Source: Candidatus Aenigmatarchaeota archaeon
GTDB lineage: Archaea > Aenigmatarchaeota > Aenigmatarchaeia > CG10238-14 > SCSR01
Length of the DNA: 38,295 bases
Direction of reading: 5' to 3'
Assembly: GCA_039091335.1 (NCBI GenBank)
Contig: JAWCME010000003.1
Coordinates: 1 to 38,295, forward strand
Shown here: one piece after another, positions 5,489-25,125 of the stretch
Numbering within the stretch: the first letter of the stretch is position 1
Layout: each line of letters starts with the position of its first letter
Program-made: the position numbers and the translations under genes
The notes under the pieces: model-generated
The model's input: only the letters and a program-made list of their open reading frames with translations
What the model was told of the DNA's origin: nothing
Databases searched by the model: none

Positions 5489-6322
5489 ATGCCTGCAAAT
5501 CTCCCTAGGGAATGGTTTATTTTGGAAGAAGAAATGAGAAATACTAAAAGCATTCAAGAAAAAATAGAAAAATTAGAAAGGCTTATTGCACTTACACCCA
5601 AGCATAAGGGAACTGAAAATTTAAGAGCGCAGTTGAACAAAAGATTGGCTAAGTTGAGAAATGAGATGGAAAAGAGTAGCAGGAAAGAGCACATAAAAAG
5701 TAAATTTGAAAAAAATGGTGATGTTTTGGTTTCTATACTCGGATTTACTCAAATAGGAAAAAGTACCTTGTTAAAAAATTTAACAAACGCCTCTGTAGAA
5801 ATAAGTAACAAACCTTATACAACAAAGGAAATTGAAAGTGGAATATGCAAATGGAATGGTGTAAGCATTCAGTTTGTCGAAATACCATCGTTTTTTCTTA
5901 AAAGGCACTTAGCTGTAGCAAAAACTTCTGATTTGTTGGTATTGCTGGTAAGAGACGAAGAAGATTTAAAAAAATTAGAATATATTTTAAATGAAAATAA
6001 TTTTGCAGAGAAGAAAAAAATAGTTTTATTTAGCAATTTTCTAAAAAATTTGTTTGAAGTAAAGGATTTTTCTGAATTTTTGAATAAAATCTTAGAAGAA
6101 GTAAATGTTTTTAGAATTTTTACAAAGCCACCAAAAAAAGAAGTTAGTAAGGATGCGCTAGTTTTTAAACTAAAACCAAAAGTTAGAGATGTTTTGAAAA
6201 GAATAAATGAAAGTTTTCTTGAAACCTTTAAATTTGCAAAAGTTTTTAGGAAAAAAGAAATTAAACGGGTTGGTCTGGATTATGAGCTTGAAGACGGAGA
6301 TATCATTGAAGTTCATGCTTAG
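5489..6322 (+). CDS. DRG/OBG-family GTP-binding protein with TGS domain (divergent)
   Basis: MPANLP, PKHKGTENLRAQL, GFTQIGKST, KPYTT, C-terminal RVGLDYELEDGDIIEVH. Confidence 0.85.
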   Translation: MPANLPREWFILEEEMRNTKSIQEKIEKLERLIALTPKHKGTENLRAQLNKRLAKLRNEMEKSSRKEHIKSKFEKNGDVLVSILGFTQIGKSTLLKNLTNASVEISNKPYTTKEIESGICKWNGVSIQFVEIPSFFLKRHLAVAKTSDLLVLLVRDEEDLKKLEYILNENNFAEKKKIVLFSNFLKNLFEVKDFSEFLNKILEEVNVFRIFTKPPKKEVSKDALVFKLKPKVRDVLKRINESFLETFKFAKVFRKKEIKRVGLDYELEDGDIIEVHA

Positions 6323-6350
6323 TTTTTTTTAAACATGCAATAAGTCTTTA

Positions 6351-6494
6351 TGGGCTCGGCGGGATTTGAACCCGCGACCATTCCCCCTTATCGAACGGGT
6401 TGCTTCCTGGTATCAAAGCTTTTAATAGATAAAAGCTTCAGCTAGTTCCGCTGCTTTCGGCTACATTTCATCTACCATGCTGAGCTACGAGCCC
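6351..6494 (-). tRNA. tRNA-Lys(UUU) with four BHB introns (6456-6471, 6437-6447, 6401-6429, 6381-6394)
   Basis: Acceptor GGGCTCG/CGAGCCC, T-arm GCGGG-TTCAAAT-CCCGC; removing 16+11+29+14 nt yields a 74-nt cloverleaf with arm GCGGG-CTTTTAA-CCCGT. Confidence 0.85.
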
Positions 6495-6981
6495 TCATTT
6501 TTTTTAGCAATTCCTTACATTTATCTTTTATCTTTTTATCGACTTTAATAAAAGCTATTCCTTTGTTTGGCAAACCGTAAACTATATTTGTTCCTATTCT
6601 TGATTTTAATGCAAAAGCAAAAGTTGCTAAATCTTCTTCACCCCTCACAAATATTTTAAACCTTCCTTTATCATCTAAAACTTTACTAACAACTTCGAGT
6701 AATTTTTTAGATATACATCTAGGAGGATTTTTAACCACAATTTTTTTAGCTTTATATTTTTCAATTTTTTTCAGCATTTTTTTACTTGTTTTTTTCCTTC
6801 CAATAATCCCATCATAAACTAAAATGTCTGGCTTAATTCCTAAAACTAATGCTTCATAACTTACCATATCACCAACAACTACAAGTTTGCCAGAAAATTC
6901 GATTTTGCTTAAAGAATTAAGTACTTTACCATAAATTTTTCTAAATTCTGGTTTTATTTTTTCGGTCAAAACTAAATCCAA
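6472..6981 (-). CDS. DUF359-family GTP-dependent dephospho-CoA kinase
   Basis: VVGDMVS, VYDGIIGR, VKNPPRCIS, VRGEEDLA, YGLPNKG. Confidence 0.85.
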   Translation of the reverse strand: MDLVLTEKIKPEFRKIYGKVLNSLSKIEFSGKLVVVGDMVSYEALVLGIKPDILVYDGIIGRKKTSKKMLKKIEKYKAKKIVVKNPPRCISKKLLEVVSKVLDDKGRFKIFVRGEEDLATFAFALKSRIGTNIVYGLPNKGIAFIKVDKKIKDKCKELLKKMRARSSAW

Positions 6982-6986
6982 CTTTA

Positions 6987-7192
6987 CTACCTTTTTCTAT
7001 TTCTTCTAAAATTGTGGGTTTGCCAAGAATACTTTTTTATTTTTGAGCTTTTTCCATAGCCACAAGCGCTACAAACTTTACTTTTTACATTAAAGCTACG
7101 CCTTCCACACCTTTTGTGTTTAGCTAAACTAATCTACACAAGGTGTGGACAGGTTTCCTTCTTTTACCCATTGAAGGCGTTCCTTTTGCCAT
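6987..7192 (-). CDS. rpl37e: 50S ribosomal protein L37e, two exons (7192-7134, 7113-6987), 61 aa after splicing; absent from ORF track
   Basis: Spliced product [61 protein letters not shown] matches the eL37 pattern. Confidence 0.93.
7114..7133 (-). other. 20-nt BHB intron in rpl37e mRNA
   Basis: GUGU-AG^A-UUAG-UUUAG-CUAA-ACAC-AA^A with complementary flanking exons; removal gives TGT AGA AGG TGT (CRRC). Confidence 0.9.
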
Positions 7193-7211
7193 GTTTTCCA
7201 CTAACTACTTT

Positions 7212-7844
7212 TTATATTTGATTTTTATAATAGTTTTGCATGTTTAAAATTTCAAATTCCTTTAAGATTTTATTCGCTCTTTCCAGGTCATCTTTTGTAT
7301 CTATATCGAAAAATTCGTTTGTAGGCATAGATATTGGTACAAACACCTTATTCTTGGATTTTTCAATTATTTCATTTAGATCTTTTTTCGGACCACAATT
7401 TTCAAAAATCTTCTTTTTATATATTCCACACAGCGTTTCATACTTATTTAATCCCCAAAAGTAGAGTATACAATCTACCATCTCTTTCGTCCTAGGTAAG
7501 AGCTCTCTTATTGTCCTATCCTGAACAAAAGGCATGTCGCACGCCAAAAGAAAGAAGTAATCGTTTTTAATATGTTTTATCCCTTCCTTTATTCCTGCTA
7601 CAGGAGAAAAAACCCTTTTGTTATCGGCAATAACCTTTACATTTTTCGAATATTTTCTAACTTCTTCTATAACTTTTTCTCTTTCTTCTCTATTTTTTAC
7701 AACAACCACAATATCAGAAAAAAAATTTTTTGCAACAAACAAAGAATATGCTATTAATGCTTTTTTGTCAAGAAGTACTAAAGCCTTTTCATTTTTCATC
7801 CCCCTTATTTTACCACCCGCGAGAATTATACAGCTAACCCCCAT
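7212..7844 (-). CDS. MobA-like NTP transferase
   Basis: IILAGG, SPVAGI, LACDMPF, FFDIDTKDDL. Confidence 0.8.
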   Translation of the reverse strand: MGVSCIILAGGKIRGMKNEKALVLLDKKALIAYSLFVAKNFFSDIVVVVKNREEREKVIEEVRKYSKNVKVIADNKRVFSPVAGIKEGIKHIKNDYFFLLACDMPFVQDRTIRELLPRTKEMVDCILYFWGLNKYETLCGIYKKKIFENCGPKKDLNEIIEKSKNKVFVPISMPTNEFFDIDTKDDLERANKILKEFEILNMQNYYKNQI

Positions 7845-15403: not shown

Positions 15404-15464
15404 ATAATATGCATTATTTAAAATGAGCAAATAAACAATATTAAATTTAAATTTTTTTATCAAA

Positions 15465-15551
15465 TGGGGCTGCCGAGATTTGAACTCGGGTTGCCGGCAC
15501 CCCAAGCCGGAGTACTAGACCATTCTAGATTATTACCTATACTACAGCCCC
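15465..15551 (-). tRNA. tRNA-Pro(GGG) with ~12-nt D-loop intron (about 15523-15534)
   Basis: GGGGCTG/CAGCCCC; CCGGC-TTGGGGT-GCCGG; D-loop 12 nt longer than in the neighbouring tRNA-Pro, relaxed BHB. Confidence 0.9.
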
Positions 15552-15584
15552 AACATTATTTCTTTTGAAATTAAAATTTAAATT

Positions 15585-23624: not shown

Positions 23625-24047
23625 ATGAAAAAATTTGAATTTGTTGACATAACAACAGCTGATGTAGCGTTTAGGGCATATGGAAAAAGCTTGGAAGAAC
23701 TTTTTGAAAATGCTGCTTTGGCTATGTTTGAAGTTGTTGTTGACACTAAGAAAATTGAGCCATTGGTAGAGAAAAAGTTAAAGGTAGATGGAATTGATTT
23801 AAAGTCTTTATTGTTCAATTGGTTAAATGAACTGCTTATATTTGTGGATTCAGAAAATCTCGCTTTTTCTCAATTCAAGGTTAAAATAGACAAAGAAAAA
23901 ATGAGCTTAGAGGCTGTTTGTAAAGGAGAAAAAATAGACAGAAAAAAACATGAAACAAGAACGAATGTTAAAGCTGCAACATATCATAAAATGGAAGTTG
24001 AGAAAATGGGAGAAATTTTTTATGCACAAGTAATTTTAGATATTTAA
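23625..24047 (+). CDS. Archease (RtcB cofactor)
   Basis: TADVAFRAYGKSLEELFENAA, WLNELL, VKAATYH, terminal LDI. Confidence 0.95.
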   Translation: MKKFEFVDITTADVAFRAYGKSLEELFENAALAMFEVVVDTKKIEPLVEKKLKVDGIDLKSLLFNWLNELLIFVDSENLAFSQFKVKIDKEKMSLEAVCKGEKIDRKKHETRTNVKAATYHKMEVEKMGEIFYAQVILDI

Positions 24048-24120: not shown

Positions 24121-24257
24121 TGCCCCCACCGGGATTTGAACCCGGGTTTGCTGGAGAACTCTCAGCCTTTCATCTTTTTTTCAAACCTTTCGAAATCAAT
24201 CGAAAGGGCTGCATCCTTGACCGGATTTTCCTGGCAGACCATCTAGACTATGGGGGC
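24121..24257 (-). tRNA. tRNA-Glu(UUC) with three introns (24219-24236, 24169-24200, 24148-24160)
   Basis: GCCCCCA/TGGGGGC acceptor; removing 18+32+13 nt gives a 74-nt cloverleaf with CAGCC-CTTTCGA-GGCTG. Confidence 0.88.
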
Positions 24258-25025: not shown

Positions 25026-25125
25026 TGGGCGAGGCCGGATTTGAACCGGCGACCGTTCCCGGTAAAACTCTCGGTTATCAGCCGATTAAGCTAATTGTGC
25101 TCCAACCAGGCTGAGCTACTCGCCC
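25026..25125 (-). tRNA. tRNA-Ile(GAU) with two non-canonical introns (25086-25096, 25056-25069)
   Basis: GGGCGAG/CTCGCCC; removing 11+14 nt gives CTCGG-CTGATAA-CCGAG arm and a 75-nt cloverleaf. Confidence 0.92.

Follow-up and report, generated by a model that had tools for sequence, protein, structure and literature searches.

How many introns can a single archaeal tRNA gene carry and still encode a tRNA on which its host depends? This question is raised by a locus on the minus strand of contig JAWCME010000003.1 (GenBank assembly GCA_039091335.1, Candidatus Aenigmatarchaeota archaeon), of which we analysed positions 1 to 38,295, hereafter called the window. From the sequence letters, a preliminary description had read positions 6494-6351 as a 144-nt tRNA-Lys(UUU) gene that is reduced to a 74-nt tRNA by the removal of four introns. 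We reproduced this result. Deletion of gene positions 24-39, 48-58, 66-94 and 101-114 left five exons that form a 74-nt tRNA-Lys(UUU) with every stem paired (acceptor stem of 7 bp, D stem of 4 bp, anticodon stem of 5 bp and T stem of 5 bp), a 7-nt anticodon loop with UUU and U33, and a variable region of 5 nt. ARAGORN typed this spliced product as tRNA-Lys(ttt). The results set out below suggest that the locus is very probably a functional tRNA-Lys(UUU) gene with four protein-spliced introns of the bulge-helix-bulge type, and probably the sole Lys(UUU) gene of an Aenigmatarchaeota-like host.

The two ends of the gene are tRNA-like by themselves: between them, the first 23 and the last 30 nt supply an acceptor stem of 7 bp, U8, a D stem with a GG-containing loop, and a T arm whose loop reads UUCAAAU. 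With a 9-nt D loop that has one extra nucleotide (17a), the introns are numbered at sites 22/23, 30/31, 37/38 and 43/44. Exon 1 (23 nt, 6472-6494) supplies the 5' strand of the acceptor stem, positions 8-9, the 5' strand of the D stem, the D loop and G22. Exon 2 (8 nt, 6448-6455) holds positions 23-30, which comprise the 3' strand of the D stem, position 26 and the first four bases of the anticodon stem. Positions 31-37, including the anticodon UUU, are in exon 3 (7 nt, 6430-6436), and exon 4 (6 nt, 6395-6400) holds positions 38-43, namely A38 and the 3' strand of the anticodon stem. Exon 5 (30 nt, 6351-6380) carries the variable region, the T arm, the 3' strand of the acceptor stem and the discriminator A, with CCA not encoded. 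The internal exons of 8, 7 and 6 nt and the introns of 16, 11, 29 and 14 nt named in the preliminary description were thus recovered, and orthologues carry or lack each intron at the same sites. Upstream on the same strand is an open reading frame (ORF) of the DUF359 family (6472-6981; Pfam E 1.1e-30), whose domain ends at residue 162 of 169.

Four freely chosen deletions leave much room, and the junctions were therefore fixed independently, by comparison with related genes. These were obtained by a DNA search of 60 relatives and this genome, by two pattern searches over 118 genomes of the order, and from fetched regions. The comparison comprised 23 fully parsed Lys(UUU) genes, 15 parsed by script and 8 by eye from the sequences; a further gene, in G022, has a long insert at 37/38, was only partly parsed and was left out of the intron tally. 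In the spliced alignment of the 15 script-parsed genes, all intervening sequences were located at 22/23, 30/31, 37/38 or 43/44 with one exception, the single intron of G053, which is two positions 3' of the 37/38 site. With the introns taken out, all 315 stem cells (21 pairs in 15 genes) were paired, and compensatory double changes were found at nine stem pairs. Exon 1 is identical or nearly so across these 15 genes. The spliced tRNA is identical to five other Lys(UUU) genes at 66-70 of 74 positions, and the intron-free Lys(UUU) genes of G059, G047 and G039 align to it without gaps. In addition, exons 1 and 5 are matched by a 64-kb contig of another organism (run X4), in which the intervening 20 letters are, by our own reading, exons 2-4 joined. 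Judged by its sequence, this contig is a natural intron-free counterpart of the predicted product.

Across the 23 genes, each of the four sites was interrupted in some and intact in others. The window gene alone has four introns; three are found in five genes (that of contig C8 in the same bin, G030, G075, G076 and G014), two in eight (G007, G038, G046, G044, G082, G073, G078 and G107), one in six (G026, G011, G023b, G001, G053 and G066) and none in the three intron-free genes named above. A 22/23 intron with the bulges of intron 1 is also present in G030, G044, G075, G076, G066 and G022 and in a Lys(CUU) gene of G041. The 30/31 and 37/38 introns are present in 7 and 10, respectively, of the 15 script-parsed genes. 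A 43/44 intron is shared by C8, G078, G107, G073 and G014 and by a Lys(CUU) gene of G097; the pattern search for this site gave 19 matches, of which 12 proved to be acceptor stems from other tRNAs and were discarded, leaving 7 genuine interruptions. The 43/44 introns of G078 and G107 end in GGGGGAA, as does intron 4. Introns 1-3 are common to three g11 genomes (G030, G075 and G076), and intron 3 is identical to its counterpart in G030 at 27 of 29 positions. When five neighbouring window proteins were searched by tblastn at E 1e-3 against the tRNA-Lys loci of seven relatives and against C8, no match was obtained.

The window belongs to a metagenome-assembled genome (MAG) of 29 contigs with signs of a second population, which leaves room for an assembly or binning artefact, i.e. 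a chimeric sequence found in no genome. The common possession of introns 1-3 by the g11 genomes and the near-identity of intron 3 with that of G030 argue against this explanation. So does an independently built Logan contig from run X1, which equals window 6000-6832 with 0 differences. A Logan contig from run X3 likewise covers window 6199-6450 with 0 differences. Runs X1 and X3 may be the source samples of the assembly, and the Logan matches therefore count only against assembly error. Taken together, these observations make an artefact hardly credible.

Since the junctions were fixed by orthologue comparison, the splice motif provides an independent test of the four introns. In each 3-nt bulge, the archaeal splicing endonuclease EndA cleaves behind the second base, and this register was used throughout. 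The rule agrees with the motif definition in the accessible text of a recent Asgard preprint (10.64898/2026.10.13.758758). In this register we found all four central helices proposed in the preliminary description. Intron 1 (16 nt, 6456-6471, site 22/23) has the helix UGGU/GCCG with 4 of 4 pairs, two of them G-U, bulges AGA and AAA, an inner helix of 2 bp and no outer helix, which places it in the HBh' class. Intron 2 (11 nt, 6437-6447, site 30/31) has CAGC/GCUG with 4 of 4 pairs, all Watson-Crick, a 3' bulge AAG and an outer helix of up to 5 bp (class hBH); its 5' cut is inside a 7-nt hairpin loop. Intron 3 (29 nt, 6401-6429), at the canonical site 37/38, has CUUU/GAAG with 4 of 4 pairs, one of them G-U, and an inner helix of 2 bp. 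Its outer helix is the anticodon stem, which can form once intron 2 is removed and then gives the full hBHBh' motif. Intron 4 (14 nt, 6381-6394, site 43/44) has ACCC/GGGG with 3 of 4 pairs (an A.G mismatch), bulges GUU and AAU, an inner helix of 1 bp and no outer helix, and falls in the relaxed motif class only. In the classes hBHBh', hBH and HBh', a flanking helix of at least 2 bp stands on the exon side (h) or the intron side (h'), against 0 and 1 bp, respectively, in intron 4. As to their ends, introns 1 and 2 start with A and introns 3 and 4 with U, whilst AA closes introns 1, 2 and 4 and CA closes intron 3, so that an A...AA pattern is followed only in part.

The central helices were compared with chance expectation by shuffling the letters of each intron while keeping its junctions. 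The observed pair count was equalled in 0.063, 0.0025, 0.060 and 0.145 of the shuffles for introns 1-4, respectively (20,000 each), and in none of 200,000 shuffles did all four introns jointly reach the observed pairing. When introns of equal length were instead put at other positions of the gene as decoys, the observed count was attained at 1 of 120, 4 of 125, 3 of 107 and 17 of 122 places, numbers that count the true place as well. Over the 23 introns of the 15 script-parsed genes, the central helix had 4 of 4 pairs in 19 and 3 of 4 in four. The helices also covary. That of intron 2 is CGGC/GCCG in G038, a compensatory change, that of intron 4 is ACCA/UGGG in C8, again compensatory, where the anticodon stem differs, and that of intron 1 has GCCA in G030 and G044.

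The same motifs bear on whether the gene is a genuine tRNA gene with other junctions or another number of introns, for example with intron 4 cut one base further 3' or with one intron removed by something other than EndA. The junctions of introns 1, 3 and 4 can each slide by one base, that of intron 4 by one U, with the product left the same, and intron 4 meets no strict motif class. However, the register stated for each intron is the one with the most central-helix pairs among the equivalent registers, and the slides that keep the product leave the number of introns at four. By our own reading there is also no contiguous alternative for the 3' strand of the D stem or for either strand of the anticodon stem. 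We therefore regard other junctions as very unlikely and retain the four-intron structure in what follows.

Exons of 6-8 nt leave little space between introns. Of the exons, a splice motif takes up six bases ahead of the 5' cut and a further one to three behind the 3' cut, so that neighbouring motifs share bases. Introns 2 and 3 both claim C32-U35, the former for its outer and the latter for its central helix. Intron 4 builds its central helix with A38-C41, and these bases are the 3' strand of the anticodon stem, on which intron 3 depends. The motifs cannot form all together, which argues for stepwise splicing in which no mini-exon is cut free on both sides. Folding was examined for naked RNA only. 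Minimum-energy structures at 37, 60 and 75 °C lacked the full motif set, and pair probabilities and constrained folds were used for this reason. In the primary transcript, the partition function gave the least probable central pair a probability of 0.64 in intron 2, 0.25 in intron 4, 0.03 in intron 1 and 0.009 in intron 3. For intron 3 this value rose to 0.50 only once the other three introns were gone. Intron 1 reached 0.27-0.43 with introns 2 and 3 removed, and its order relative to intron 3 is less clear. The folding model thus predicts that introns 2 and 4 are removed first and the 37/38 intron last. According to the accessible text on tRNAscan-SE 2.0, some archaeal introns must leave before the next motif can form (PMC8450103), and a report on Cyanidioschyzon merolae, as far as its accessible text goes, describes experiments on a three-intron tRNA from which the non-canonical introns are removed first and the 37/38 intron last (PMC3728597).

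In the pathway that we propose, the 144-nt precursor would be transcribed, both of its ends would be trimmed and CCA would be added. EndA would cut after the second base of each 3-nt bulge, and RtcB with Archease would join the exon ends. Cutting and rejoining would proceed one intron at a time, such that a mini-exon is never freed on both sides, with introns 2 and 4 accessible first and the canonical intron 3 last. Only tentatively, we take this a step further and suggest that the host's only tRNA for AAA, a very common codon at 33% G+C, may rely on four rounds of cutting and joining in an obligatory order, carried out by a single-subunit EndA, that the order may be enforced by the RNA itself, and that the four sites may be fixed permissive slots that lineages fill and empty independently. 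If true, this one isoacceptor would be a natural series of 0-4 introns in the same slots with which intron gain, loss and tolerance could be studied.

Several observations weigh against a functional four-intron gene. The conformer with all motifs formed has about -27 kcal/mol compared with a minimum of -49.7 kcal/mol at 37 °C, and any single motif forced in the primary transcript costs +2 to +7.6 kcal/mol. The motif of intron 1 combines two G-U pairs with the absence of an outer helix, and that of intron 4 is the weakest of the four (3 of 4 central pairs, outer helix 0, inner helix 1 bp). The upstream DUF359 ORF overlaps exon 1 by 23 nt and takes its stop codon, UAG, from tRNA positions 21-23; if the ORF and the tRNA were co-transcribed, 5' processing of the tRNA would take off the stop codon of the mRNA. 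The A+T-rich leader has no distinctive promoter in a scan for sigma-70-type sequences, which is not meant for archaea. A comparison by eye of 34 tRNA upstream regions showed general A+T richness only. The five runs listed as holding this DNA are all hot-spring metagenomes and none is on record as RNA, which makes the splicing, the junctions and their order predictions. Finally, EndA is absent from the 87%-complete bin in searches with Pfam PF01974 and PF02778 and with tblastn using the enzymes of nine relatives (best E 0.11), and a second Lys(UUU) gene is present in the bin and, if it belongs to the same cell, could make the four-intron copy dispensable. The last two points are considered in turn.

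The bin consists of 29 contigs and 569,737 bp with 33% G+C, and its nearest named relative, by a ThiI protein of 68% identity, is a Candidatus Aenigmatarchaeota hot-spring MAG. The host is an Aenigmatarchaeota-like DPANN archaeon outside the Thermoproteales. The preliminary description had drawn its comparison with multi-intron tRNAs from that order, of which a 0.57-Mb, 33% G+C DPANN bin is not a member. When parsed by eye, most tRNA genes of this genome are interrupted, with three introns in each of the genes for Ile(UAU), Gln(UUG) and Glu(UUC); no gene exceeding four was seen in this parsing, which was no formal census. Both parts of the joining machinery are encoded. RtcB is at C25:37091-37729 (E 4.6e-85), in a gene truncated at the contig end, and Archease is in the window at 23625-24047 on the plus strand (E 5.8e-46), 73 nt from a tRNA-Glu gene.

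EndA was found in 59 of the 61 genomes searched, this bin among the 61, and we infer that its absence here is best read as incompleteness of the bin. In the relatives it is one ORF of ~180-230 residues per genome; in family f1 it is a single ORF in 33 of the 35 genomes with a match, of about 190-236 residues among the matches listed. The EndA of one relative aligns over its full length with the homotetrameric Methanocaldococcus jannaschii enzyme 1A79 (E 1.8e-29) and has six extra residues between the Tyr and His that we take to be catalytic. Compared with M. jannaschii EndA, a basic insert of the KLKRGPK type is present between these two residues in all nine aligned enzymes of relatives (loci L060, L062, L064, L065 and L067-L071). 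An additional ORF of ~250-410 residues with two endonuclease domains was observed in families f2, f5 and f7, and in one weak case in f1. In the accessible text of Kaneta 2018, the loops that give EndA broad specificity sit near the catalytic His, and single-subunit DPANN enzymes go with heavy disruption of tRNA genes (PMC5829648). A single-unit enzyme with a small basic insert in the relatives bears on the question of which enzyme features allow relaxed substrates.

The preliminary description had left open whether the genome holds another tRNA-Lys(UUU). It does: the bin contains a 189-nt gene at C8:2293-2481 with introns at 30/31, 37/38 and 43/44. The bin's only Lys(CUU) gene is on C8 too. 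C8 also carries diverged doubles of other window genes, namely a pair of ABC-transporter genes with 63-64% amino-acid identity and the gene for ribosomal protein L37e (by nucleotide and tblastx comparison), and C18 doubles the window tRNA-Glu and thymidylate kinase genes. More generally, small contigs (C3, C4, C6, C7, C8, C10, C13, C18 and C22) are covered over 13-76% of their length by matches of 66-81% nucleotide identity to parts of C1, C23, C25, C27 and C29. The estimated contamination of the bin is 1.1%, despite these signs of a second population. Because single-copy genes are doubled in a 0.57-Mb genome, we consider it likely that the bin contains fragments of a second, related population besides the main one. 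If so, the C8 gene would be an orthologue from another cell and the four-intron gene the host's sole reader of AAA.

The second copy is also a ground on which the window gene could be viewed as decaying or redundant, that is, as inefficiently processed while AAA is read by the three-intron gene of C8. The marginal motifs of introns 1 and 4 and the composition of the listed runs, none of which is on record as RNA, would fit such a view. However, C8 appears to be part of the second population, and the window gene has no broken stem pair and has lost no conserved tRNA base. Between it and its G030 orthologue, paired bases of the acceptor and T stems have changed in compensation, the mark of selection on the spliced fold. 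The weak motif of intron 4 and its GGGGGAA end are met again in G078 and G107, which speaks for a conserved design. Decay or redundancy is therefore unlikely, and a functional gene with four introns is the reading that we prefer.

Why, then, would such a gene escape annotation? The preliminary description had warned that standard scanners may miss it, and this holds for both scanners that we ran. ARAGORN reported 3 genes elsewhere in the window and did not call this one; in intron mode it reported 28 genes in the whole genome, none at the four-intron locus. Rfam RF00005 gave 4 tRNA matches in the window at the gathering score and 29 genome-wide, likewise none at this locus, and a permissive Rfam scan of 6250-6600 (E up to 10) gave 11 weak matches, 0 of them to tRNA. 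On the unspliced sequence of the gene ARAGORN found 0 genes. In contrast, it returned a tRNA-Lys(ttt) of 74 bases for the spliced products of 6 of 6 genes from five genomes (this gene, C8, G030, G007, G038 and G046). Since a probably essential tRNA is invisible to ARAGORN and Rfam, automated annotation of the bin would mislead on Lys(UUU), reporting it missing or crediting the C8 copy only. Kaneta 2018, in its accessible text, voices a similar worry about annotation of DPANN and Asgard genomes (PMC5829648).

Box C/D guide RNAs have a recognised box consensus and follow a fifth-nucleotide rule, and intron 3 has features that recall them. By our own reading, it has 7 nt complementary to tRNA positions 31-37, then one spacer base and UUGA rather than CUGA, a complementarity that puts U34 at the fifth pair. 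The intron is without a GAUGA partner box, and a kink-turn cannot be argued for the Lys gene. A similar layout was observed in 37/38 introns of Lys(UUU), Glu(UUC), Gln(UUG), CAU and Leu(CAA) tRNA genes: it starts with 6-7 nt that are the complement of positions 31-36 and goes on with one base, YYGA, a further 3-9 nt, and GAUGA or a near variant. GAUGA itself is present in the 37/38 introns of G046, G026, G023b and G001 and of the Glu, Gln and Leu(CAA) genes of this genome, and variant boxes are UGAUGG in G038, UGACGA in G011 and AUGA in the CAU gene of this genome. The sequences concerned are in the window at 6401-6429 and 24121-24257 (both minus strand), at C18:588-709, C27:12666-12812, C1:95264-95388 and C27:403-515, and at loci L044, L054, L076, L083, L086 and L091. 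As a sequence pattern, the shared layout resembles a kink-loop guide with boxes D' and C', in which nucleotide 34 would fall at the fifth pair. The genome encodes fibrillarin and Nop5 at C28:5766-7307. A GAUGA at the exon 1/intron 1 junction and a CUGA at the end of intron 2 were considered as a C/D pair and rejected, since the CUGA is accounted for by the GCUG helix strand and the AA of the bulge, and G044 has no GAUGA at that place. Intron 3, with its complementarity and D'-like UUGA, may be compared with the known guide in the archaeal pre-tRNA-Trp intron, which the accessible text of a review describes as the unique intron-borne case (PMC4090602). Here the tRNA is Lys, GAUGA is absent and the likeness is one of sequence reading.

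Interrupted genes are also found near the Lys(UUU) locus. The gene for L37e (6987-7192, minus strand), 500 nt upstream, contains a 20-nt intron at 7114-7133 with a strict bulge-helix-bulge motif (GUGU/ACAC with 4 of 4 pairs, bulges AGA and AAA, an outer helix of 3 bp and an inner helix of 5 bp). Its exons, 7192-7134 and 7113-6987, when joined give a frame of 61 residues, the length of the uninterrupted copy at C8:2083-2268. The Pfam L37e profile matches the C8 copy with E 1.9e-24 and window exon 2 alone with E 3.5e-12, at profile positions 20-50, and an Rfam search of 6900-7300, the stretch that holds this gene, gave no match. Bulge-helix-bulge introns in protein genes have a precedent in cbf5 of Crenarchaeota. 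In C8 (2083-2481), G073 (L111) and G107 (L118), L37e is followed directly by tRNA-Lys(UUU), and in the window the DUF359 gene is between them. The L37e copies of C8 and G107 are intron-free; that of G073 could be read only from just downstream of the intron site. The tRNA-Glu(UUC) gene of the window (24121-24257, minus strand, 137 nt) has three inserts by Rfam alignment: 22 nt in the D loop, 35 nt at 37/38 and 14 nt in the variable region. It was mistyped as Leu by ARAGORN, and its diverged double is at C18:588-709. Two further interrupted tRNA genes are on the minus strand at 15464-15552 and 25026-25125. One of the two was left untyped by ARAGORN and is Pro(GGG) with a D-loop insert by our own reading, and the Rfam alignment of the other leaves 41 interior bases unaligned.

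How does a gene with four introns compare with what is known? The kind of gene is well known: protein-spliced tRNA introns, several per gene and at both canonical and non-canonical sites, occur in Thermoproteales, Thaumarchaeota, ARMAN, Asgard archaea and a red alga. Literature searches found no paper on tRNA introns in Aenigmatarchaeota, a name that was met only in the definition of the superphylum in Kaneta 2018. The limit of three introns cited in the preliminary description stood in part. It is stated in the accessible text on tRNAscan-SE 2.0, which gives a maximum of three introns per archaeal tRNA gene (PMC8450103), and four introns exceed this peer-reviewed figure. However, a preprint of October 2026, in its accessible text, puts the number of intervening sequences in a single tRNA gene of Asgard archaea as high as five (10.64898/2026.10.13.758758), and four are therefore not beyond everything in print.

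Among the known systems, the Thermoproteales (Pyrobaculum, Thermofilum and Caldivirga) likewise have short introns at canonical and non-canonical sites, relaxed motifs and dependent removal, as far as the accessible text describes them (PMC8450103). They differ in having at most three introns per gene in that text, against four here, and the relatives of the present host have a single-subunit EndA of M. jannaschii-like length, in contrast to the two-subunit enzyme of crenarchaea. In three Asgard genomes, 92-95% of the tRNA genes are interrupted (Valentin-Alvarado et al. 2024), and the accessible text of the Asgard preprint describes a system in which most tRNA genes are interrupted, many intervening sequences are missed by standard annotation, and introns were gained repeatedly at sites that permit the motif (10.64898/2026.10.13.758758). 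Asgard archaea belong to a different superphylum, and what recurs here is one set of four sites in a single isoacceptor, combined in many ways across an order. The 23 Lys(UUU) genes of this order, with 0-4 introns in the same few slots, form a compact data set on intron gain and loss. ARMAN-2 reportedly has a three-unit EndA, whereas the relatives examined here have one unit of ~190 residues with the 6-residue basic insert. The disrupted tRNA genes of DPANN archaea are similar in host and in their non-canonical introns, and an extra loop of EndA has been proposed to widen its specificity, according to the accessible text (Kaneta 2018, PMC5829648). The nuclear tRNA genes of C. merolae likewise contain multiple short introns, including some at D-arm sites; they are eukaryotic and have at most three ectopic introns, in the accessible text of that report (PMC3728597). 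Compared with these systems, the four-intron tRNA-Lys(UUU) gene belongs to a known kind, of which it is an extreme example close to the upper end of the range; it shows no new mechanism, and its novelty is modest.

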